Assembly (NCBI RefSeq): GCF_051105105.1
Contig: NZ_CP185339.1
Direction: 5' to 3' (one strand)
DNA: 64,000 nucleotides
From: Nannocystis pusilla
GTDB taxonomy: Bacteria; Myxococcota_A; Polyangia; Nannocystales; Nannocystaceae
Shown here piece by piece: positions 1 to 51,756 of this stretch (its first letter is position 1; every line of letters begins with the position of its first letter). The translations under genes and the position numbers were made by a program. A model generated the notes under the pieces. That model saw nothing but the letters and a program-made list of their open reading frames with translations, did not search any database and was not told the origin of the DNA.

Positions 1-51
1 CACGATGCCGGCGCCGATGCCCCGCGAGCCTCCGGTGACGAAGAAGTTCAT
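1..51 (-). CDS. short-chain dehydrogenase/reductase, 3-oxoacyl-ACP reductase-like (only the first 17 codons; the gene runs off the left edge)
   Basis: The reverse strand from 51 reads MNFFVTGGSRGIGAGIV, the TGxxxGIG Rossmann fingerprint of SDR/FabG enzymes. Its ATG lies 9 nt after the ketosynthase stop, so it looks operonic. Confidence 0.45.
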   Translation of the reverse strand, partial: MNFFVTGGSRGIGAGIV

Positions 52-59
52 GGCGCGGC

Positions 60-1372
60 TCACAGGCTGTTCGGGTCCCACCGGCGGTACAGAGCGCAGC
101 AATTGAGGCCGCCGAAGCCGAACGAGTTCTTGACCATCAGGTCGATGCGGTGCTCCACCGCCTTGTTGGCGCACACGTCGAGGTCGACCTCGGGGTCGAG
201 CTCGTCGATGTTGATCGACGGGTGCAGCACGCCGCCGCGCATCTGCAGCAGCGCCGCCACGGTCTCGACCGCCGGCGCCGACCAGCAGGTGTGGCCGAGC
301 ATCGACTTCGGCGCGTTGATCTTGAGCTTCTTGGCGTGGTCGCCGAAGACCTTGCGGATCGCGTTGAGCTCGGACAGGTCGCCGAGCGGCGTGCTGGTCG
401 CGTGGGCGCACACGAAGTCGACCTCGTCGGGCCGCACCTGCGCGCGCCGCAGCAGCCGCTCGAGCGTGCGCGCCTGGCCCTCGGTCGACGGCGACGGCAG
501 GTGGCAGCCGTCCGACGTTCGAGGTGCAGCCGAGCACCTCGGCGTAGATCGTCGCGCCGCGCTTCAGCGCGTGGCCGAGCTCCTCGAGCACCAGCGCGCC
601 GGCGCCGTGCGACGGCACGAAGCCCTCGCGCCGCGAGTCGTAGGGCCGGCTGGCCAGCTCGGGCGTGTCGTTGAAGCTCTCGAAGGTGATGGCGCCGAGC
701 AGCGCCATCGCGTGCACGCCCATCTGCGAGAAGTCGAGCACCGCGCCGACCACCATCGCCATGTCGTGGTCGTGGTGGCGGATCTCGTCGATCGCGTTGC
801 GCAGGGCCACGTTCGCGCTGGCGCACGCGCCCCCGAGCGTGTAGCAGGCGCCCTTCCAGCCGAGCATCTCGCTCACCGAGCCGGCGTGGTCGGTGTCGAG
901 CATGTGCAGCGCCGCCATCGAGTCGATGTAGTCGGGGTCTTCCGTCTGGAAGGTGACGTAGTTGTCGGCGAAGTAGCGCTCGTTGAGGTTGTGGCCGCCG
1001 ACCAGCACCGCGCAGCGGGTCGGGTCCGCGACCTCGACCATGCCGGCGTCGCGCCAGGCATCGGCCGCGCACAGCACCGACAGCGACGTTCGAGAACGGC
1101 GCCTTGTTGCACAGCTGGCGGGCCCGCTTGTGCACCTCGGCCGGCAGCACGTCGCGCAGGCGCGCCAGCTTGGCCTTGACGTCGTACTCCGACAGATCGC
1201 CGCCGATCTTCGAGTACACGCCGTCGTTGTTGTGCCACTTCCAGCGCGTGATCGCCGACTTGCCGGCGACGAGGTTGGCGTAGAAGGTGTCGAGATCGTC
1301 GCCCAGGGGCGTGTTGATGCCGAGGCCGGTGATGACCACGCGGCGGGGCGATTGTGCCTGCGATGAGACCAT
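60..1372 (-). CDS. beta-ketoacyl-ACP synthase (KAS I/II or PKS ketosynthase-like); reading frame broken twice by a 7-nt GACGTTC insertion (possible pseudogene or sequence artefact)
   Basis: N-terminal RRVVITGLGINTPLG and C-terminal DFVCAHATSTPLGDLSELNAIRKVFG...GHTCWSAPAVE...NSFGFGGLNCCAL are KAS hallmarks, but they lie in different frames. Removing the heptamers at 514-520 and 1085-1091 gives a continuous KAS with ...IYAEVLGCTSDGCHLPSPS... and ...PFSLSVLCAADAWRDAG... Confidence 0.8.
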
Positions 1373-1392
1373 GCGTGCTCTTCTGGGGGGAG

Positions 1393-1946
1393 TCAGTCCA
1401 TCAAGTAGACCTCGAACACCGCGAGGGCCTGGACCTCCTCGCCGCGGAGGGCCTGGCCGACGCAGGTCGAGACGTAGTCGCTGTGCTCGAGCGAGCGGGC
1501 GAGCAGCGTCAGCCGGTCGCCCGGGCGAACGCCGCCCTGGAACAGGGCGTGGTGGACCTTGAGCAGCCGCAGGCGCGCCGGCGCGTCCGCGGCGTCGATG
1601 CTGGCTGTCCCTTTGGCCATGAGGTGCAAGAGACAGATCCCGAGCTGCCCGATCGCCTCGACCAGCAGCACGCCCGGGTACACCGGGTCGCCGGGGAAGT
1701 GGCCGGCGAACACCGCGTCGCCGGCGTCGATCGTCCGCACGCCGCGGATCATGCCCGGGTCCTCGGGCGTGCGCGGCAGCTCGACCGCGTCGATCGCGTC
1801 GACGAACAGGAACGGGTCGCGGTGCGGCAGCATGCGCTCGATCGCGGCGCGGCCGAACTCGACCCGCGTGCTGCCCTCTCCGGGCACGAACACGGGCCGC
1901 CGGCGGAGCTGCTTGATCAGCGCGTCGAGGCCGCTCAGCTCGTCCA
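1393..1946 (-). CDS. 3-hydroxyacyl-ACP dehydratase, FabZ/FabA hotdog family (start codon uncertain)
   Basis: LPHRDPFLFVD and HFPGDPVYPGVLLVEAIGQLG match the FabZ catalytic His/Glu region. The start is placed at the GTG that overlaps the upstream acyltransferase stop. Confidence 0.65.
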
Positions 1947-2945
1947 CGACGCCTCCTGAGCCACGTCCTTGCGGGGGGTCGGCGGCAGGTGCTGGCGCAG
2001 CGCCGCGAGCACGCCGGCCAGGTGCCCGGCCGCGTCGTCGCGGTTGTCGGTGGCGTACTTCGGACGCGACGACCACTTGCGGTCGAGCAGGTTGTGCAGC
2101 ACCTGGCGCGGGCCGACCTCGACGAACACCGCGCCCGGGTGACGCTCGGTGACGCGGTCGATCGACTTGCGCCACAGCACCGGCGTGTGCACGTGCTCCT
2201 CGAGCAGGTCGACGAACACGCCCGGCCCCGGCGCCGGCACGAACTCGCCGCGGCGGTTCGGCAGGTACGGCAGCCGCGGGGCCTTGAAGCGCGCGCGCTG
2301 CAGGTGCGGGCGCAGGGCCGCGCCGACCGACTCGAACAGCGACGAGTGCATCGGCACCTGGCGCTCGATGATCGTCGGCACCACGTAGTGCTCGTCCTCC
2401 AGCAGCGCGACCGCGGCCTCGACCGCGGCGGCGTCGCCCGACAGCACGTGCTGCTTCGGCGAGTTGAGGTTGACGATCTCGAGCACCCCGAGGCCCTGGC
2501 CGCGGATCTGCTCGACCACCTCCTCGAGCGTCTCGAGGTCGAGCGGCTGGACCGAGGCCATCATCCCGCGCGGGCCGGCGTCGTAGGCCTCGCCGCGGGC
2601 CTGGACCAGGCGCAGCGCCTCCGGCAGCTCGAGCGCGCCGATGTGGACGAGATGGTTGTACTCGCCGAGCGACAGCCCCAGCGACAGCTCGGCGTCGACG
2701 CCCTCGGCCTGCAGGAGGCTGAGCATCATGTGGTTGGCGACGAACACGCCGACTTGGACGTCGACGTTGCGATCGAACGCCGTCGGGTTGTCCTCGCTGG
2801 TGTGCGCGTCGAGGTCGCGGCCGAGCACGTCGTTGCAGCGCGCCAGCACCTCGGCGGCCCGGCGGTGCAGCCGGGCCAGCTTGCCGAGCATCCCGGGGTA
2901 GCGTGAGCTCTGCCCTGGGAACATGAACACCAGCGTCGTCTTCAT
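1935..2945 (-). CDS. malonyl-CoA:ACP transacylase / acyltransferase domain protein (FabD-like)
   Basis: FMFPGQSS at the N-terminus and GLSLGEY (the GxSxG nucleophile elbow) are the MCAT/AT-domain fingerprints. The 336-aa ORF is intact. Confidence 0.75.
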   Translation of the reverse strand: MKTTLVFMFPGQSSRYPGMLGKLARLHRRAAEVLARCNDVLGRDLDAHTSEDNPTAFDRNVDVQVGVFVANHMMLSLLQAEGVDAELSLGLSLGEYNHLVHIGALELPEALRLVQARGEAYDAGPRGMMASVQPLDLETLEEVVEQIRGQGLGVLEIVNLNSPKQHVLSGDAAAVEAAVALLEDEHYVVPTIIERQVPMHSSLFESVGAALRPHLQRARFKAPRLPYLPNRRGEFVPAPGPGVFVDLLEEHVHTPVLWRKSIDRVTERHPGAVFVEVGPRQVLHNLLDRKWSSRPKYATDNRDDAAGHLAGVLAALRQHLPPTPRKDVAQEASWTS

Positions 2946-2967
2946 CGTGCCCCCTACCCTGTCCCGC

Positions 2968-4243
2968 TCACTCGGCCGCCCCGTCGACGCGGCCGCGGAT
3001 GATCGTGTCCTCGAGGATCTCGAGCGCGCGGTCGAGGTCGGCGCGCGTGTGCGCGGCCGTGATCGCGACGCGGAAGCGCAGCCCGTCCTCGGGCACCGAG
3101 GGGTAGTCGACCGGCGCGAGGAACAGCCCGCGACGGTGGAGCGTGCGCGTCAACTCATACAGCCGGCGGCGATCCGATCCGACCAGTAATTGGCACCACC
3201 TGACTCGAGCCGTGCCCGAGGTCGAGGCCGATCTGCTGCGCCTTCTCGCGGAAGTAGCGGGTGTTGGCCCACAGCGTCTCGCGCAGCGAGTTGTCGCGGG
3301 TCGCCACCTCGAGCGCCTTGCGGAGCCCGGCCACCACCGCCGGCGGCAGCGCGCAGCTGAAGCCGTAGGCGTTGATGTAGTAGCGCATGTACTGCAGCAG
3401 CGCGCGCGGCCCGACGGTGAAGCCGCCGCAGCCGGCGAACGCCTTGCTGAAGGTCGCGAACTGCAGGCCGATCGACTTCTCGGCCCCGTAGTGCTCGACC
3501 ACGCCGCGGCCGCTCGCGCCGTACACGAGGATCGAGTGGGCCTCGTCGATCAGCACGCCGACGCCGTGCTTCTCGGCCACCGGCAGCAGCTTCGGCAGAT
3601 CGGCCGTGTCGCCGTCCATCGAGTACACGCCCTCGACCACCACCAGCCGGCGCGCGCCCTCGCTGTCGGTCAGCGCCTGGTCGAGCGAGTCGGGGTCGTT
3701 GTGGTCGAAGAACACCAGCTTGGCGCGCGACAGCTTGGCGCCGTCGATCGAGCACAGGTGGGTCTTGGCGTCGAGGATGGCCACGTCGCCCTTGCGCAAC
3801 ACGCCGGCGAGCGTGCCCATTCCCCCGGCGAAGCCGCTGTTGAAGAGGATGCAGTCCTCCTGGCCGAGGAACGCCGCCAGCTCCTGCTCGAGCCCGCGGT
3901 GCAGATCCGACAACCCCGACAGCAGCGGCGATCCGCAGGCCCCGGTGCCGTAGGTGCGCAGGGCCTCCTGCGCCGCCTCGACGACCTCCGGGTGCGTCGC
4001 CAGCCCGAGGTAGTTGTACGAGCTGAGGTTGATGACGTCGCTGCGTTCGCCGGCGCGTTCGATCGCCATGCGCGGTGCGACGGCCCCCAACATGTGGGGC
4101 TCGTACATCGACATCGCCCAGGAGCCGGCCTCGGCCCACTGCACGAAGCCCTCGGGCGGACGGAGCGGATCGTCGCTGTCCGAGAAGTAGAAGTCGGCCA
4201 AACTGTGCTCGGCTTCGCGGCCCATCACGGAACTCCCCGGCAT
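2968..4243 (-). CDS. alpha-oxoamine synthase family PLP enzyme (serine palmitoyltransferase / KBL / BioF-like); apparent +1 frameshift near 3170-3180
   Basis: NLSSYNYLGL, the Spt/AONS signature, and FSKAFAGCGG, the PLP-lysine region, are present. The C-terminal 61 aa (RFRVAITAAHTRADLDRALEIL) sit in another frame. A single extra base, in the reverse-strand string ccaattActggtc, accounts for the shift. Confidence 0.75.
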
Positions 4244-4672
4244 GTCGGGGCCCGGGCGTAGTTACAGCGAAAGTATCGCGGCTGTCACGGAAATTTTGTT
4301 CCTCAGCGCATGCGGATCCACGTGCAGCGCGCGCTGTCGCGTCGTTGCACGTGTTGCAGATTGCGACGCGCTGGCCTTATCGGCGAACTATTTAAACCGG
4401 TGCATAAAATGATGCGCCTCGATACGGCCGCATGCGGCTGCATCGGCCGCTGGTAGTTAATCTCGAGTGCAACAATCTCCACGCCCTGCAGCGAACTCGA
4501 CGGCCGAGTCGCGCTCGCGCTCGCGTGTGGACTGCGAAATGCGTCGCACACTGGCTGTATGTCACGCATGCTGCGGACAGGAGACCGCGATCGAAGCGGC
4601 GCGTGGTGAAGCTCTCGAGCTCGTGTCATCGCCTTGACGTTCGACGCATGGCGGTGGGTAATCCCCCGCTTC

Positions 4673-5768
4673 GTGCGCACGAAGGTCCTCGTCACCGGCG
4701 CGAACGGCTTCATCGGCAGTCACCTCGTCGATCGTCTGCTCGCGGGCGGCGACGAGGTGCGGGCGATGGTCCGCGCCAGCGCCAACCTCGACAACCTCGC
4801 CGACGCGCTCGCGCGGACCGACGCGCGGCCCGAGCTCGTGCGCGCGTCGCTGGCCGACGTTCGACGCGATGGCGGCCGCGTTCGACGGCGTCGACATCGT
4901 CTATCACGTGGCCGGCCTGACCGCCGCGTTCACCCGCGACGAGTTCGCGCGGGCCAACGCGGCCGGCGTCGCCAACGTGCTCGCGGCGATCCGCCAGGCC
5001 CCGCGACGGCCGCGGCGGCTGGTCTACGTGTCGTCGCTGATGGCCGCCGGCCCGTCGCACCCCGAGGTCGCGCGCCGCGAGCACCACGCTCCGCGCGTCG
5101 GCTACACGCTCTACGGCGACAGCAAGCTCGACGGCGAGCGGCTGGTCTTCGCCGCCGCGCGCACCGGCGACGTCGAGGCCGTGATCGTGCGTCCGCCCGC
5201 GGTCTACGGCCCGCGCGACCTCGACATGTTGCAGATGATCCGCTCGGCCAAGTTCGGGTTGATCGCCCAGCCCGGCCTGCGCCCCGCGTGGATGTCCTTC
5301 ATCCACGCCTTCGACCTCGTCGAGGGCATCGCCCGCGCCGGCGCTCGCGGCCGCCCGATCCCTCGCGACGGCGAGCACGTGCTCGCCGATCAGGGCAGCC
5401 CCTTCGACCATGTCCCCGAGGACATCTCGCACCCCGCCGGCGCCGGCATCTACTACTTGACCGACGGCCAGCGCAGCACCGTCGTCGAGTTCGGCCGGGC
5501 CGCCGCCGCCGCGCTCGGCCGGCGGGCGCTCGCGCTGCCGATGCCGCAGGCCGCGGTGTGGACCGTCGCCGGCATCAACCACGCGATCGGCCGCCTGCGC
5601 GGCAAGGCCCCCGCGCTGACGCTCGACAAGGCCCGCGGCAGCATGGCGCCGGGCTGGTGGTGCGACGACAGCCGAGCCGTGCGCGAGCTCGAGTACGCCC
5701 CGCAGTGGCCGCTCGCGCGAGGGCTCGAGCACACCGTCGCGTGGGCCCGCTCCGTCGGTCGCCTGTGA
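4673..5768 (+). CDS. NAD-dependent epimerase/dehydratase (extended SDR); frame broken by a GACGTTC heptamer at 4856-4862
   Basis: VLVTGANGFIGSHLVDRL (Rossmann fold) and YGDSK (YxxxK catalytic motif) are present. After ...ASLAD the frame jumps to MAAAFDGVDIVYHVAG...; deleting the heptamer gives a continuous ...ASLADAMAAAFDGVD... The GTG start at 4673 is inferred. Confidence 0.75.
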
Positions 5769-6047: not shown

Positions 6048-7172
6048 ATGCTCCGCCCTTCGGTCGCCGACATCGCCTTCGACGCCGCCCTCTTCGACTC
6101 TCTGCGCAGCGCCCTCGCCCGCGGCGAGCTCAGCCCCACGCGCGCCCGTCTGACCGCCCCGCCGCGGCCGCTCGGCGACGACGTCCTGCTCGACCTCGGC
6201 CGCGCCGACGCCCGGCCCGGCTGGCGCGCGCGCGGCCAGGATGCCCTCGGCGCGCGCAAGGTCGCCGCCCTGATCTTGAACGGCGGCATGGCCACGCGCT
6301 TCGGCGGCGTCGTCAAGGGCGTCGTCCCGGTCTTGCCCGATCGACCTGACCTCTCGTTCCTCGCCGTCAAGCTCGCCGGCGTCCGCGCGGCCGGTGTGCC
6401 GGCCGTCGTGATGCACAGCTTCGCCACCCGGGCTGCCTCCGGCGATCACCTCGCCACCATCGGCTGGTCCGGCGTCCCTGCCGACGACCGCCACGAATTC
6501 TTGCAGTCCTTGATGCCGCGCGTCGTGCCCGACGGCACCCCGCTCGTCAGCCTGCCCGGCGCCGACCTCTTGCCCGACACCACCGTCTACGCCGCACCCG
6601 GCCACGGCGACACCCTCCGGCGCGTGCGCGACAGCGGCGTCGTCGCCGAGCTGCGGCGCCGCGGCGTCGAGCACCTCCTCGTCTCCAACGTCGACAACCT
6701 CGGCGCCTCCCTCGATCCCACCGTCCTCGGCGCCCACCTCGACGCCGTCGACGGCGGCGCCGAGCTCAGCGTCGAGGTCGTCGCACGCGCCCCCGACGAC
6801 GCCGGCGGCTGCGTCGCCGAGGTCGACGGCCGCGCCACCATCATCGAGTCCTTCCGCCTGCCCCCCGGCGTCTCCCTGGCCCAGTATCCGCACTTCAACA
6901 CCAACACCCTGTGGATCTCCCTGGCCGCCCTCGAGCGCCCCTACCCGCTCACCTGGTTCCCCGTCGAGCGCTCCGTCGAGTGGCCCGGCCGCGACGACCA
7001 GCCCGTCATCCAGTTCGAACAGCTCATCGGCCAGATCACCGAGTTCGCCCGGACCGCCTGCCTGCGGGTCGACCGCGCCCGCTTCCTCCCGATCAAGACC
7101 CGCGACGACCTCGCCGCCGCCCGCCCCGCGATGACCGAGATCGTCCGCAGCGTCGGCCTCGATCCCGGCTGA
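6048..7172 (+). CDS. UTP--glucose-1-phosphate uridylyltransferase family protein (UDPGP, PF01704-like)
   Basis: LNGGMATRFGG...KG, the nucleotide-binding loop of UDP-sugar pyrophosphorylases. The 374-aa ORF is intact. Confidence 0.7.
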   Translation: MLRPSVADIAFDAALFDSLRSALARGELSPTRARLTAPPRPLGDDVLLDLGRADARPGWRARGQDALGARKVAALILNGGMATRFGGVVKGVVPVLPDRPDLSFLAVKLAGVRAAGVPAVVMHSFATRAASGDHLATIGWSGVPADDRHEFLQSLMPRVVPDGTPLVSLPGADLLPDTTVYAAPGHGDTLRRVRDSGVVAELRRRGVEHLLVSNVDNLGASLDPTVLGAHLDAVDGGAELSVEVVARAPDDAGGCVAEVDGRATIIESFRLPPGVSLAQYPHFNTNTLWISLAALERPYPLTWFPVERSVEWPGRDDQPVIQFEQLIGQITEFARTACLRVDRARFLPIKTRDDLAAARPAMTEIVRSVGLDPG

Positions 7173-7307: not shown

Positions 7308-7767
7308 TTTCCCCAGCCCTCTCGCGTCCCCACCGCCATTCGCCGCCCCGGAGCCGTCCGCCGCGCCGCCCGTCGCCGCGCACTGACGAGCGCCGGATGG
7401 GTCTCCAGGAGGTCCGAGCGATGGGCGGCCGGCCCCGGCCGTCCATCGCTCGGAGAGCCCTCCCCGCGCCGCGCCCTCCCGACAGCGGAGCCCACGACCG
7501 GCGCTCGGGCCACCCACGAGGCTAGCCGTGCAGCGGTCGGGGACGTGGGTCGGCGCCCATCCGCAGCGAGATGCGCCCGACGAAGGAGGGTGCATCCGCG
7601 AGGACTGGGCGCCGGCCCGCGTCCCCGACCGCCCGCGAGGCGGCCTCGGCAGTTCGCGAACCCCCGCGAAGCAAGCGCAACGAACCCCCGAAGCAAAGGC
7701 CGCCCGCCCGAGGCCTGGCGTCCCCAGGCTCCCCGCGAGCGCCGACGCTGCTATAAAGCGCGCCGAC

Positions 7768-9357
7768 ATGGCCGACGCACTCGACCACTATCTCACCTGG
7801 CGCCTTTACCGTGCCGAACTCGACATCGAGCTCGACTTCGCCGACGCCCAGCTCGACGAGCCCGCGCTGACCGCCAGCGCCCCGCGGCTCGAGGCCGCGC
7901 TGGACGCCCTTCACCGGATCGAGGGCGGCGCCGTCGCCAACGCCGACGAGGGCCGCATGGTCGGGCACTACTGGCTGCGCGACCCGGAGCGCGCCCCCGA
8001 TCCCGCGATCACTCAGGCCATCCACGACAGCTGGCGGCAGATCGAGGCCTTCGCCGCCGGCGTGCGCGGCGGCCAGATCCTCGCCGACGACGATCGGCCG
8101 TTCACCGGCGCCATCCTCGTCGGGATCGGCGGCAGCGCTCTCGGCCCGCAGCTGCTCGAGGCCGCCCTCACCGCGCGGGACAGCGGCCCCGGCTTCAGCC
8201 TGCGCGTCCTCGACAACACCGACCCGGCCGGCATCGCCGACCTGCTCGCAGAGACAGGTACGCTCGCGCAGACCTTGATCCTCGTCGTCTCCAAGTCGGG
8301 CTCCACCGTCGAGACGCGCAACGGCATGCTCGAGCTGCGGGCCGCCTGCGCCCGGCAGGCGATCGAGTTCCCCAAGCGGGCGATCGCCATCACCCTCGAG
8401 GGCAGCGCGCTCGATCAGCTCGCGCAGCGCGAGGGCTGGCTGGCGCGCTTCCCCATGTGGGACTGGGTCGGCGGGCGCACCAGCGTGCTCTCGCCGGTCG
8501 GCCTGCTGCCGGCGGCGCTGCTCGGCCACGACTGGCGCGGCCTCCTGCGCGGCGCCGCGGCGATGGACCAGTGGGGCCGCGTGCGGCCGGCGCGGCGCAA
8601 CCCGGCCGCCCTGCTCGCCTGGCTGTGGCACCAGCAGGGCTCCGGACATGGCCTTCGGGACATGGTCATTTTGCCATACAAGGATCGCCTGTCGCTGCTG
8701 TCGCGCTACCTGCAGCAGCTGGTGATGGAGTCGCTCGGCAAGCGGCTCGACCGCCAGGGGCGCGAGGTGTGGCAGGGGCTCGCGGTCTACGGCAACAAGG
8801 GCTCGACCGACCAGCACGCCTACGTGCAGCAGCTGCGCGACGGCCTGCACAACTTCTTCGCGGTGTTCGTGCGGGTGCTCCGCGACCTCGACGGCCAGGT
8901 CACGGGCCCGGGCATGGTCGAGGTCGAGCCGCAGGTGAGCTCGGGCGACTGCCTCGACGGCTTCTACCAGGGCACCCGCGCCGCGCTCGCCGAGCGCGGT
9001 CGGGCCAGCGCGACGATCGTCCTGCGCCAGGTCGACGCCGCCGCCGTCGGCGCCTTGATCGCGCTGTTCGAGCGCGCGGTCGGGATCTACGCCGAGCTCA
9101 TCGACGTCAACGCCTACCACCAGCCCGGCGTCGAGGCCGGCAAGCAGGCGGCGAAGGGCGTGCTCACGCTGCAGGCCGCGGTGCTCGCCGCGCTGCCGGG
9201 CGGCTCTGGAGGCAAGACCGCGCGCGAGCTCGCCGAGGCGCTCGGCGCCGACCCCGTGGCGGTGTGGCAGGTGCTGCGTCACCTCGCCAGCAACGGCCGC
9301 GTGAGCGTCGACAGCCTCGTCGATCCGGCGGCTGCACAGTTCGCGCGCGCGCCTTGA
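7768..9357 (+). CDS. pgi: glucose-6-phosphate isomerase
   Basis: Carries the SIS-domain PGI motifs (ILVGIGGSALGP, LVVSKSGSTVET, ESLGKR, HAYVQQL). The ORF track starts earlier at 7528, but the first convincing start is the ATG at 7768 (MADALDHYL). Confidence 0.85.
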   Translation: MADALDHYLTWRLYRAELDIELDFADAQLDEPALTASAPRLEAALDALHRIEGGAVANADEGRMVGHYWLRDPERAPDPAITQAIHDSWRQIEAFAAGVRGGQILADDDRPFTGAILVGIGGSALGPQLLEAALTARDSGPGFSLRVLDNTDPAGIADLLAETGTLAQTLILVVSKSGSTVETRNGMLELRAACARQAIEFPKRAIAITLEGSALDQLAQREGWLARFPMWDWVGGRTSVLSPVGLLPAALLGHDWRGLLRGAAAMDQWGRVRPARRNPAALLAWLWHQQGSGHGLRDMVILPYKDRLSLLSRYLQQLVMESLGKRLDRQGREVWQGLAVYGNKGSTDQHAYVQQLRDGLHNFFAVFVRVLRDLDGQVTGPGMVEVEPQVSSGDCLDGFYQGTRAALAERGRASATIVLRQVDAAAVGALIALFERAVGIYAELIDVNAYHQPGVEAGKQAAKGVLTLQAAVLAALPGGSGGKTARELAEALGADPVAVWQVLRHLASNGRVSVDSLVDPAAAQFARAP

Positions 9358-13894: not shown

Positions 13895-14060
13895 GCCCAG
13901 ATCTGGCCCTGAGGTATGGCAGAGGCAACGGGGCGAATAAAGTTAAAAAGTGCGCACGGGCCCGCGGGCCGCAGGTCACGGCCTGTTAGAGCCTTTTTTG
14001 TAATTGAGCATGCAATTTGATCCGTCGATATTGTGACGAACTCGCCTATATTGCCGCGCC
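13895..14060 (+). promoter_or_regulatory. AT-rich promoter region upstream of prmA, with a TATATT -10-like hexamer 12 nt before the ATG
   Basis: Locally AT-rich in a GC-rich background (...ttttttgtaattgagcatgcaatttgatccgtcgatattgtgacgaactcgcctatattgccgcgccATG). There is also a GGCCCGCGGGCC palindrome at 13926-13937. Confidence 0.3.
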
Positions 14061-15030
14061 ATGCGTGAGACAGCAGAGACGACCGCCGAACCGTGGGCGA
14101 CGCTTTTGGTCCAGCTCCGCGGCCGGTCCGACGACGACGGCGAGGGCCTCGACCTCGGCGAGCTGACCGAGGCGTCGGAGCGGCTCGAGGCGCTGGCGAC
14201 GCTGATCGCCGAGGACCCGCGCGCCGCGGGCGTGGAGACGCGGGACACGTCGACCCTCGGCAGTCGGTGCGAGATCCCCGAGCTTACGATTTACACCACC
14301 CCCGACGGCCTCGAAGGCCTCATCGCCGAGGTCGAGCGGCTCGGCGCCGACCTGCACCTGCCGCTGCGGCTGACCCCGGCGGTGCGCACCGACGACGACT
14401 GGCGCGACACGTGGAAGCAGTTCTACGCGCCGCTGGTGTTCTCGGCCGCGACGACGACGCTGCTGGTGCGACCGAGCTGGATCGATCGCCGGCCCGGCGA
14501 CCCGGAGCTCGAGCTGGTCCTCGACCCCGGCCGCGCCTTCGGCACCGGCCAGCACGAGACCACGCGGCTGTGCCTGGAGCTGCTGGTCGCCCTCGCCGAG
14601 GCCGGCGCGCGCCCCGACCGCGTGCTCGACCTCGGCTGCGGCTCCGGCATCCTGGCCCTGGGGGCGGCGCGGCTGTTCCCGCAGGCCGCGGTGGTCGCCG
14701 CCGACAACGACCCCGACGCCGCCGACACCACCGCCGAGAACGCCGCCGCCAACGAGCTCGAGGACCGGCTCGAAGATCCGGGCCGCGACCGTCTTGGAAC
14801 TTTCGGACAGCTTCGATCTGATCCTCGCCAACATCCGCCCCGGCGTGTTGATCCCGATCGCCGGCGACCTCGCGCGCCGGCTCGCCCCCGGCGGCGCCGT
14901 CGTCCTCAGCGGCGTGCTCGGCGAGGAGGCCGAGGCCGTGCTCGCCGCCTACACCGCGGCCGGGCTGGCGCTGGCCGACCGCCGCGACCTCGCCGAGTGG
15001 TGCGCGCTGGTCCTGCGAGCGGCCGGATGA
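14061..15030 (+). CDS. prmA: ribosomal protein L11 methyltransferase; apparent single-base frameshift near 14770-14776
   Basis: FGTGQHETTRLCLELL and LDLGCGSGILALGAA are PrmA SAM-binding motifs. The C-terminus (ELSDSFDLILANI...) is in the +1 frame. The string ctcgaAgatccgg looks like ctcgagatccgg with one extra A. Confidence 0.8.
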
Positions 15031-15716
15031 GCACGCGGGTGTTCGTGGGCGCGCCGGCCGACCCGGCGCGCGTCGGCCTGGACGCCGCCGAGTCGCACTA
15101 CCTCCGCCGGGTCCGCCGGGTCGGCGACGGCGCGCGCATCGAGGCGATCGACGACCACGGCGCGCTGTGGCTGGCCGAGGTCGTCGGCGGCGACGCGCGC
15201 GGCACCACCGTGAAGTTGCTCGAGCAACGAACGGTGCCGGCCCCCGCGCGCGAGGTCGTCGTCCTGCTCGGCATGCCGGAGCCGGCCACCGTGCTCGACG
15301 TGCTGCCGGCGCTGTGCGAGATCGGCGTCGCCGAGGTCGTGCTGGTCCGCTGCGCGCGCAGCCAGGGCGCGGCGCCCGGCGGCGAACGGATCGCGCGGGT
15401 GCTGCGAGCGGCGCAGCGGCAGTGCGGCAGGCCCCGCGCGCCCGCGATCTCGGGACCCGTCGATCTCCGCGAGGCCACGCACCGGCGCACCGACCTCCCC
15501 GGCTTGTTCGCGTGGGAGGAGCTGCGCGCGACATCGAGCGACACGCCGGCGGTCGTCGCGGGTGCTCGTGTGTGCGTGGGGCCCGAAGGTGGGTTTACCC
15601 CCGAGGAGGCGGCGCTGCTGCGCGCCGCGGGCTTCCGCGCGCTCGGCCTCGGGCCCTACACGCTGCGCACCGAGACGGCGGCGCTGGTCGCTGTCGCTCG
15701 CGTGATGTTCGCCTGA
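15027..15716 (+). CDS. rsmE: 16S rRNA (uracil1498-N3)-methyltransferase RsmE
   Basis: Ends in ...VCVGPEGGFTPEEAALLRAAGFRALGLGPYTLRTETAALVAVA, the RsmE C-terminal SPOUT-knot motif. Its ATG overlaps the prmA stop (ATGA). Confidence 0.8.
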   Translation: MSTRVFVGAPADPARVGLDAAESHYLRRVRRVGDGARIEAIDDHGALWLAEVVGGDARGTTVKLLEQRTVPAPAREVVVLLGMPEPATVLDVLPALCEIGVAEVVLVRCARSQGAAPGGERIARVLRAAQRQCGRPRAPAISGPVDLREATHRRTDLPGLFAWEELRATSSDTPAVVAGARVCVGPEGGFTPEEAALLRAAGFRALGLGPYTLRTETAALVAVARVMFA

Positions 15717-51191: not shown

Positions 51192-51756
51192 ATGATCTTG
51201 TCCCGCTCCTTAACAGCCTCCGCCGCGCGCTGGTCCGCGGCCCTGTTGTTCCTGCTCGCCCCCGCCGCGAGCCGCACCGCGCGCGCCGACGCCGTGTCCG
51301 AGCCGCCGAGCTGCCCCGACGGCTCGAGCCCCGACGGCTGCCACGGGGGCGAGTACTGCGAGCCGAACGAGTGCACCGACACCTGTCCTTCGGGCAAGGT
51401 GTGCAAGGAGGTCGAGCGCTGCGCGGGCACGGTCACGTGCGGCGGCGGGTGGACCAGCACCGGCGGTGACTTCTCGGTCGACAACATCCTCGGAGACTGC
51501 GGCGAGGGCGGTGCGTGCGCTGCGGGGATGTGCAAGTCGTTCAAGCTGTGCGTGTCGGACACGAGCGGCACGACGTTCGACGGGCGACGGCTCCGGCACC
51601 TCGCAGGGGTCCGAGTCCGACGGCGACAGCGACGGCACGCCGCCGAAGAAGGAGGGCTGCGAAGGTTGCCGGACGAGCGACGACGCCGCGCCGGCGCTGC
51701 TGGCCCTGGGCGTCCTCGGCCTGGCGATCGGCCGGCGCTCGCGGCGACGCGGCTGA
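51192..51756 (+). CDS. Cys-rich secreted protein with a MYXO-CTERM sorting tail; frame broken by a GACGTTC heptamer at 51572-51578
   Basis: A signal peptide and a Cys-rich region (CPDGSSPDGCHGGEYCEPNECTDTCPSGKVCKEVERCAG...). The C-terminus GCEGCRTSDDAAPALLALGVLGLAIGRRSRRRG is in the +1 frame. Deleting the heptamer gives a continuous ...SGTTGDGSGTSQGSESDGD... Confidence 0.65.

Follow-up and report, generated by a model that had tools for sequence, protein, structure and literature searches.

An α-oxoamine synthase operon with a predicted β-branching cassette in Nannocystis and its relatives: a candidate route to methyl-branched sphingolipids

The DNA analysed here comprises 64,000 nucleotides of Nannocystis pusilla (contig NZ_CP185339.1; this whole stretch is called the window), and the locus under study occupies its first 5,768 positions. 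On the minus strand it encodes, in the direction of transcription, an α-oxoamine synthase (AOS), a FabD-like acyltransferase (AT), a FabZ/FabA-fold dehydratase, a ketosynthase (KS) and the 5' end of a FabG-like ketoreductase, and divergently, on the plus strand, an extended short-chain dehydrogenase/reductase (SDR) of the NAD-dependent epimerase/dehydratase family (Table 1). A preliminary description of the locus, made from the sequence alone, had given the same genes, and its positions and calls agree with our coordinates and with Pfam. The tight packing that it noted downstream of the synthase gene is seen as well: 22 nt separate the AOS and AT genes, the AT and dehydratase genes overlap by 13 nt, and gaps of 20 and 8 nt precede the KS and the FabG-like gene, respectively. 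The DNA shares 93–97% identity with the six Nannocystis genomes compared and with a metagenome contig assembled from short reads, and the GC content around the locus is 70–75% with such a strong third-position GC that the reading frames can be traced directly. Four frame changes within the KS, AOS and SDR genes are discussed below, and the proteins are described here in their corrected form. As comparison with related genomes shows, these five minus-strand genes open a conserved operon of 11 genes, whose promoter-proximal half thus lies in the window.

The complete operon is present in Nannocystis punicea (L007), where the FabG-like gene (full-length orthologue of 247 aa; TIGR01830 3-oxoacyl-ACP reductase, 241 bits) is followed by an HMG-CoA-synthase homolog (HMGS), two crotonase-fold genes (ECH1 and ECH2), two paralogous FabL-like SDRs and an acyl carrier protein (ACP) of 88 aa. 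The order is thus AOS, AT, dehydratase, KS, ketoreductase, HMGS, ECH1, ECH2, two FabL-like reductases and ACP, and the same eleven parts occur in the same order in Pseudenhygromyxa (L011), Plesiocystis pacifica (L012), a metagenome-assembled genome (MAG; L013) and Nannocystaceae ST9 (L014), with AOS identities of 58–86% across the operon-bearing loci. Moreover, AOS relatives down to 47% identity are accompanied by KS, ketoreductase, HMGS, two ECH, SDR, ACP and dehydratase genes (L024, L020, L021), there in other gene orders or with AOS–AT fusions. Because the gene set travels with the AOS over this range of identities, it is judged by sequence comparison to be a conserved module and not a chance neighborhood. 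The dedicated acyl-chain supply that had been suggested for the AOS is therefore found in the relatives as a fixed operon with AT, dehydratase, KS, ketoreductase, HMGS cassette and ACP, and the ACP that was to be looked for outside the window is the last gene of that operon. The HMGS β-branching system of which the acyl-supply genes are part is the unusual feature of the operon and is invisible from the letters of the window alone. A variant of the module with two AOS enzymes is encoded in L020 (GCA_047159535.1, 7699–19216, 69% GC), in the order ACP–AOS fusion (532 aa), a 236-aa protein without Pfam match, AOS–acyltransferase fusion (736 aa), dehydratase, KS, ketoreductase, HMGS, two ECH and SDR–ACP–SDR.

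The individual parts resemble those of polyketide β-branching systems to different degrees. HMGS carries both HMG_CoA_synt domains of Pfam (N and C; L011, L012, L014), scores 256 bits against TIGR01835 (cutoff 360) and, in L007, where the gene lies in the part of the operon outside the window, keeps the catalytic residues in the motifs ESSVD, ACYGG and YHVPF. Two adjacent crotonase-fold genes are present at every locus, as expected for an ECH1/ECH2 pair; ECH2 scores 276 bits against the pksX-type model NF005496 and thereby exceeds its curated cutoff of 215, and ECH1 has its top match in PRK07112 with 124 bits, under the cutoff. The ACP, a PP-binding protein of 86–88 aa likewise encoded outside the window, is the last gene of the operon in L007, L011, L012, L013 and L014 and matches PRK07117 best (60 bits, cutoff 79). 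Without the extra T at positions 518 and 1089 the KS comprises 436 aa, with its Cys-His-His triad kept; its top NCBIfam match is the polyketide KS PRK07103 (358 bits, cutoff 445), followed by FabF (328), and intact orthologues of 436 aa are encoded in L010, L007 and L011. Since the Cys is kept, the KS could be elongating, decarboxylating or both. The AT is intact, scores 143 bits against TIGR00128 fabD (cutoff 261) and has the motif GLSLGE where GHSLGE is expected; a look-up of its exact protein sequence gave no match. The orthologues of the dehydratase also match the ApeI-like family PF22818. With a free-standing ACP, an AT and a KS next to HMGS, ECH1 and ECH2, these genes seem to make up a complete β-branching cassette, even if the matches of KS and ACP to the pksX-type models stay under the cutoffs, and the ketoreductase, the dehydratase and the enoyl-reductase-like SDRs would provide a full reductive cycle.

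An example for comparison is the trans-AT polyketide synthase (PKS) pksX of Bacillus subtilis, whose HMGS cassette consists of AcpK, PksC, PksF, PksG, PksH and PksI and is represented in NCBIfam by PRK07103, PRK07110, PRK07112 and PRK07117. All six types of parts (AT, free-standing ACP, KS, HMGS, ECH1 and ECH2) are found in the Nannocystaceae operon, with ECH2 passing the curated cutoff and KS, ECH1 and ACP having their best matches among the pksX-type models. In contrast to pksX, KS, ECH1, ACP and HMGS remain under the curated cutoffs, there is no modular PKS, and the cassette is surrounded by a minimal type II system that has only one ACP and ends in an AOS.

The AOS is a protein of 424 aa once one base near 3186 is removed, although the ATG at 4225, preceded by a GGGGAG Shine-Dalgarno sequence, is the likelier start (418 aa). 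Over 99% of its length the corrected sequence matches, with 100% identity, a protein whose gene is intact on the short-read contig (P0001). It contains the pyridoxal phosphate (PLP) lysine in the motif FSKA, the histidine in THLCSIDG and the Asp-x-x-His motif in IDEAHS, and its residues 64–405 align with solved structures of serine palmitoyltransferase (SPT). It therefore has the features of an AOS-fold PLP enzyme that are expected for the AOS of a ceramide pathway, i.e., the catalytic Lys, His and Asp-x-x-His. Within this superfamily it is 31–37% identical to E. coli Spt, to the SPTs of S. paucimobilis and S. multivorum, to E. coli Kbl, to BioF and to Thermus AOS (ThAOS), and in a sequence search of the PDB Thermus AOS, S. 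multivorum SPT and KBL were found with near-equal scores. It scores under the NCBIfam cutoffs of bioF (329/426) and of KBL (300/460 and 268/493). A search of 1.84 billion cluster representatives for its neighbors yielded a tight family (P0241–P0249, 44–55% identity) followed by a plateau of generic AOS enzymes. The phylogenetic placement that had been proposed as a check gave neither KBL nor BioF: both in a 12-sequence tree and in a bootstrapped neighbor-joining tree of 72 sequences the AOS family forms its own clade (73/100 in the latter), which is separable from the group of KBL, ThAOS and BioF, with a second solved KBL (7v58) in the reference set. The 72-sequence tree has a weak backbone, and a position beside the Spt group remains compatible with it; when grouping with Spt and grouping with KBL are compared, each of the two groups is separable from the AOS in 71% of the replicates. 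Among the 149 nearest 50%-identity cluster representatives that were compared, S. multivorum SPT is the best characterized reference for 120, and there is a weak leaning of the AOS toward the Bacteroidota/delta-proteobacterial Spt subgroup. The AOS enzymes of Pseudenhygromyxa (L011, 10001–11548) and Plesiocystis (L012, 10001–11560) are with 515–519 aa about 100 residues longer than in Nannocystis; the extra residues are C-terminal and without Pfam domain, and the stop codon overlaps the start of the AT gene.

With the extra T at 4860 taken out, the SDR is 364 aa long and carries the motifs TGANGFIGSHL and YGDSK. It shares its two top NCBIfam families, HpnA and then OleD, both lipid-ketone reductases, with the CerR homolog of E. 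coli BL21, and for both proteins these scores are far above those of sugar epimerases such as GalE (for the SDR, score/cutoff: GalE 45/262, dTDP-glucose dehydratase 44/365, heptose epimerase 29/275). The suggestion that the epimerase-family gene encodes a CerR-like reductase and not a sugar epimerase is supported by this ranking. Four Nannocystaceae genera share the pairing of SDR and AOS but vary in the other flanking genes, and in Nannocystis the SDR stands beside the operon though every other flanking gene differs from those of the relatives. In L011, L012 and L014, where the orthologues are 56% identical to it over the full length, the divergent unit consists of a protein of ~400 aa and then the SDR. 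This protein, encoded between SDR and AOS, has only faint GNAT matches in Pfam and is 32–34% identical to YghO of E. coli BL21 over the full length (E 1e-66 to 1e-74). The annotated genome of E. coli BL21 has yghO, an acyl-AMP ligase, an epimerase-family protein, an ACP and spt together, and yghO (ECD_02850) and ECD_02852 are homologs of CC_1154 and CC_1164 of Caulobacter (PMC9386255), which were named cerS and cerR and are both needed for dihydroceramide (PMC11324152). The bCerS-like gene that had been proposed as a further search target is thus found beside the SDR–AOS pair in three sister genera, as a full-length homolog of the YghO family.

In Nannocystis itself, neither the window nor the surrounding ±10 kb contains a cerS homolog. 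It is encoded elsewhere in the Nannocystis genomes, in N. punicea at a distance of 7.3 Mb (CP114040, ~12.2 Mb; L017, 8001–11279), where it is followed in one unit by a 93-aa ACP and a 589-aa AMP-binding acyl ligase, which resemble the acpR–aasR pairs described in other myxobacteria (PMC9386255). This second ACP could be the carrier of the N-acyl chain. A few genes beyond the cerS–cerR unit of L011 and L012 lies a thiamine-diphosphate enzyme of 575 aa (L011, 1–1397; L012, 1–1129), in Pseudenhygromyxa followed by a KAS III gene, and between these genes and the cerS–cerR unit a large AAA_16 protein and a HATPase_c protein are encoded. All of them may belong to the same pathway, in starter-unit supply or in regulation.

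Sphingolipid synthesis in bacteria is known to proceed via Spt, CerS and CerR, and the known supply of acyl chains comes from general fatty-acid metabolism via acyl-CoA or an acyl-ACP synthetase. Taking gene content and synteny together, the locus most likely represents a variant form of ceramide synthesis in bacteria that brings its own supply of branched chains. The broader reading that the operon encodes a conserved Nannocystaceae lipid pathway for a methyl-branched sphingoid base or ceramide-type lipid, with functional genes and frameshifts that are errors, appears to us moderately probable. In such a pathway the AT would load malonyl onto the ACP of the operon, the KS would supply acetyl-ACP and β-ketoacyl-ACP, and HMGS, ECH1 and ECH2 would convert a β-keto group into a methyl branch. 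Acting on acetoacetyl-ACP, these three enzymes would give 3-methylcrotonyl-ACP, from which the enoyl reductase would form isovaleryl-ACP. This would parallel, with ACP-bound intermediates, the alternative isovaleryl-CoA route of myxobacteria. KS, ketoreductase, dehydratase and enoyl reductase would then elongate and reduce the chain, the AOS would join an amino acid, most likely serine, to the acyl chain of the ACP in a condensation that yields a 3-keto long-chain base, the CerS homolog would N-acylate this 3-keto base and the SDR would reduce its 3-ketone. The most specific form of the proposal, in which an acetate-derived methyl-branched, probably iso-branched, acyl-ACP is built de novo on a private ACP by a minimal type II synthase with an HMGS cassette and is converted directly by a new Spt-like clade into the long-chain base of a membrane ceramide, is put forward as tentative.

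The ceramide genes of Caulobacter crescentus and E. coli BL21, i.e., spt, acpR, cerR (CC_1164/ECD_02852), aasR and cerS (CC_1154/yghO), serve as the reference for this proposal. In both cases an AOS-family enzyme, a dedicated ACP, an epimerase-family reductase and an N-acyltransferase of the YghO family are encoded at one locus, cerS is in a transcription unit separate from spt, and the Nannocystaceae proteins align over the full length with the YghO and CerR homologs of E. coli BL21 (PMC9386255, PMC11324152). There are also differences. Instead of being activated by AasR, the chain would apparently be made de novo by AT, KS, ketoreductase, dehydratase, enoyl reductase and HMGS of the operon; the AOS belongs to a separate clade and is 30–32% identical to E. 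coli Spt; in three Nannocystaceae genera cerR is co-transcribed with cerS and not with spt; and cerS of Nannocystis has been relocated to a site with an ACP and an AMP-ligase gene.

Two further systems share parts of the logic. Fungal sphinganine analogues such as fumonisin (Fum1 and Fum8), sphingofungin and myriocin are made from PKS chains that are released by an AOS. A dedicated synthase, a methyl-branched chain and an AOS that joins the chain to an amino acid before ketoreduction are common to both; however, the fungal systems use an iterative type I PKS and methyl groups derived from S-adenosylmethionine and make toxins or inhibitors, whereas the Nannocystaceae parts are discrete bacterial proteins with adjacent ceramide genes, and the methyl group would come from acetate via HMGS. 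Myxococcus xanthus has an alternative isovaleryl-CoA pathway with MvaS, LiuC, AibA/B and AibC. The chemistry is the same as that proposed here, from an HMG thioester via 3-methylglutaconyl and 3-methylcrotonyl to isovaleryl, and would give iso-branched chains; the M. xanthus pathway differs from the proposal in being CoA-bound, in using a glutaconate-CoA-transferase-like decarboxylase and in having no link to an AOS.

The arrangement suggests a third route of acyl supply, i.e., a dedicated synthase with β-branching chemistry within the Spt operon. If this is true, a polyketide-style assembly line would for the first time be assigned to a sphingolipid in bacteria, as a counterpart to the PKS-plus-AOS logic of fungi, unusual methyl-branched long-chain bases would be predicted in a myxobacterial group that makes sterols, and sphingolipid surveys would gain a new AOS clade, which surveys based on Spt phylogeny only would miss. 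Furthermore, the compact 11-gene cassette is suited to heterologous expression. In the literature that could be searched, which is incomplete, no description was found of an operon that combines an Spt-type enzyme with an HMGS cassette, and the supplements of the Black Sea Spt survey contain no Nannocystaceae entries.

Several observations weigh against a ceramide-type product. The AOS failed all three NCBIfam equivalog models for Spt (score/cutoff 298/640, 288/500 and 232/670), it is about equidistant from Spt, KBL, ThAOS and BioF, and its clade lies outside the three characterized SPTs (SmSPT, SpSPT and E. coli Spt). Because of this position and of the missed cutoffs, it is from gene context and synteny, and not from phylogeny, that we infer its Spt identity. 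Its earlier naming as Spt-like accordingly holds in that the KBL and BioF clades are avoided, and fails in that the neighbor-joining tree and the NCBIfam cutoffs place it apart from characterized Spt; likewise, the earlier proposal of a module of Spt-like AOS, CerR-like SDR and dedicated acyl supply stands by synteny and falls short in Spt clade membership. The sequence fixes neither the amino-acid substrate of the AOS nor the chain length, the placement of the β-branch at the starter or in mid-chain is a guess, and a canonical Spt elsewhere in Nannocystis may be the enzyme that serves cerS and cerR. The SDR aligns end-to-end with the CerR homolog of E. coli BL21, which was taken as query in place of Caulobacter CerR itself or a curated CerR model, at 27% identity (E 2e-26), a level that is common among extended SDRs. 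No lipid data or sphingolipids of Nannocystaceae were found in the same incomplete literature. Finally, neither cerS nor cerR was found within 10 kb of the AOS–HMGS module in L020 and L024, so that the module is not always tied to ceramide genes.

This last observation favors, as a first alternative, a specialized-metabolite cluster, namely a small type II PKS or fatty acid synthase with β-branching from which the AOS releases an α-amino ketone or amino alcohol. Instead of a membrane sphingolipid, such a cluster would make a CAI-1/LAI-1-type signal, a pyrazine precursor or a sphinganine-analogue toxin; the SDR would reduce the ketone, and the amino acid need not be serine. The position of the AOS outside the characterized Spt group fits this alternative, as do the second, ACP-fused AOS and the AOS–AT fusion in L020, the resemblance of dehydratase and ketoreductase to parts of aryl-polyene and flexirubin type II PKSs (ApeI-like, FlxB) and the fact that HMGS cassettes are otherwise known from polyketide pathways, in line with the pksX-type matches in NCBIfam. 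However, the gene content is fixed over at least four Nannocystaceae genera at AOS identities of 58–86%, which would be more typical of a core lipid than of a strain-specific product, the operon lies directly beside both ceramide-pathway homologs in three genera, and the substitutions in AOS and KS are mostly synonymous (corrected reading frames compared with L005: 42 synonymous and 11 nonsynonymous changes in the AOS, 36 and 11 in the KS). We therefore regard a specialized metabolite as rather unlikely, albeit as the most serious competitor of the lipid pathway.

It is highly improbable that the locus is an unrelated neighborhood, in which the AOS would be a BioF or KBL of biotin or threonine metabolism, the fab-like genes would be spare copies for fatty-acid synthesis and the SDR would be a sugar-nucleotide epimerase working with the UDP-glucose pyrophosphorylase (UDPGP family) and the glucose-6-phosphate isomerase (PGI) encoded downstream. 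The top raw NCBIfam scores of the AOS are indeed those of bioF (329 bits) and of the BioF/Kbl subfamily (318 bits), and in Nannocystis the SDR is followed by the UDPGP-family gene and PGI on the same strand. Nevertheless, the AOS misses the equivalog cutoffs of both BioF and KBL and is separated in the trees from E. coli BioF and Kbl, the KBL 7v58 and Thermus AOS, no bio or tdh gene is present at the locus, and the SDR remains far under the cutoff of GalE. Moreover, AOS, HMGS cassette and fab-like genes are constant members of one operon, and the adjacency to UDPGP and PGI is found in Nannocystis only, whereas that of SDR and AOS extends over four genera.

The frame changes at ~519 and ~1090 (KS), ~3186 (AOS) and ~4861 (SDR) had been described as lesions of these genes. 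They are present in the sequence, but compared with all relatives they correspond to single-base insertions at 518, 1089, 3186 and 4860 that, like a fifth one at 4640 in the spacer, are missing from all seven related assemblies (the six Nannocystis genomes and the short-read contig), which speaks against real lesions. Four of the five insertions are identical: where all relatives have GACGTCGA, the window has GACGTTCGA, with an extra T that is always on the plus strand, irrespective of whether the gene is on the plus (SDR) or on the minus strand (KS). The fifth, at 3186 in the AOS, stands in another sequence context (GATCATGG to AATTACTGG). After deletion of one base at each of the four genic sites, full-length, stop-free open reading frames (ORFs) are obtained that are gap-free and collinear with those of the relatives. 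As the insertion is recurrent, with the same motif and on the same strand, the frameshifts are interpreted not as gene decay but as motif- and strand-specific errors of sequence production, for which an effect of base modification on long-read basecalling at GACGTCGA may be responsible, and the genes of the locus are probably functional. The opposite view, a decaying pseudogene cluster of this strain with four true mutations, could point to three of six genes broken by single-base insertions within 5.8 kb, but it is the least probable of all since three of the four shifts and the intergenic insertion are one and the same change, this change recurs at frame shifts 50 kb away, no stops or further indels have accumulated and the substitutions are mostly synonymous.

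The octamer ACGTTCGA occurs at nine sites in the window (515, 1086, 4637, 4857, 39209, 51573, 53399, 53544 and 57561) and its reverse complement TCGAACGT at none, while in the relatives GACGTTCGA is found about once per ~130 kb. At six of the nine sites the phase of the third-position GC jumps by +1, namely at three of the four sites of the locus and at 51573, 53399 and 57561. The same inserted T is thus found at distant phase jumps, and genes far from the locus are therefore broken as well; gene calls across the whole assembly are probably affected and need correction, and apparent pseudogenes would be artefactual. A strand asymmetry of ACGTT versus AACGT was considered as a wider form of the artefact and was rejected: it stems mostly from AAC-GTC codons of minus-strand genes, and only the ACGTTCGA subset is anomalous. 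In the ORF 14037–15716 (plus strand) the phase of the third-position GC shifts at ~14767 and reverts at ~15037 (270 nt), with an Arg/Pro-rich nonsense translation in between, which suggests either two more compensating indels or a read-through junction of two genes.

The divergent spacer is locally AT-rich, as had been noted, with ~60% GC over 429 bp compared with 70–75% in its surroundings. The two palindromes described therein were rejected as chance occurrences. They are present, the arms of the first being CGCGTCG (4338–4344) and CGACGCG (4364–4370), but inverted repeats with 7-nt arms occur at chance frequency (4 observed versus 2.6 ± 2.2 in shuffles), and the left arm of the first palindrome is disrupted in the closest relatives without a compensating change. 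No match to a sigma-70 consensus, no terminator and no Rfam match were found within 4244–4672. A conserved block upstream of the AOS start (4256–4300) is invariant in Nannocystis and recognizable in a Nannocystis MAG of 79% identity (L006). Its core reads TTCCGTGACAG-N-GCTGTAACTACGCC in the AOS sense, and its counterpart in Nannocystaceae ST9 and Plesiocystis is TTCCGTGACAGG-N-CTTTGGCG(G)TACTGAGCC, making it a candidate promoter or operator of the operon. The block also contains an imperfect 8-bp inverted repeat, GTTACAGC and GCTGTCAC on the plus strand, with a spacing of 12 nt.

Table 1. Features of the locus at positions 1–5768 of the window.
Feature	Position	Strand	Evidence or remark
FabG-like ketoreductase, 5' end, 17 codons MNFFVTGGSRGIGAGIV	1–51	-	Translation; gene exits the left edge of the window
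Ketosynthase (KS)	60–1372	-	Pfam ketoacyl-synt N and C domains
GACGTTCGA, inserted T at 518, frameshift in KS	514–522	+	Alignment with relatives
GACGTTCGA, inserted T at 1089, frameshift in KS	1085–1093	+	Alignment with relatives
FabZ/FabA-fold dehydratase, 184 aa	1393–1947	-	Pfam FabA, E 4e-19
FabD-like acyltransferase (AT), 336 aa, intact	1935–2945	-	Pfam Acyl_transf_1, E 5e-22
α-Oxoamine synthase (AOS)	2968–4243	-	Pfam Aminotran_1_2 (PF00155), E 2e-48
Local lesion in AOS	3184–3192		CCGATCATGG in seven relatives, CCAATTACTGG in the window: two substitutions, one inserted base
Divergent intergenic spacer, 429 bp	4244–4672		GC ~60%
Conserved block ~15–60 nt upstream of AOS start	4256–4300	-	AOS sense TTTCCGTGACAGCCGCGATACTTTCGCTGTAACTACGCC
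GACGTTCGA, inserted T at 4640, intergenic	4636–4644	+	Alignment with relatives
Extended SDR, NAD-dependent epimerase/dehydratase family	4673–5768	+	Pfam Epimerase, E 1e-33
GACGTTCGA, inserted T at 4860, frameshift in SDR	4856–4864	+	Alignment with relatives

Downstream of the SDR, the plus strand encodes a UDPGP-family nucleotidyltransferase (6048–7172) that matches no NCBIfam model, a PGI (~7700–9357) with a long Arg/Pro-rich upstream extension of its ORF, and a MATE transporter. For the UDPGP-family protein and the PGI a putative role in lipid glycosylation is possible.

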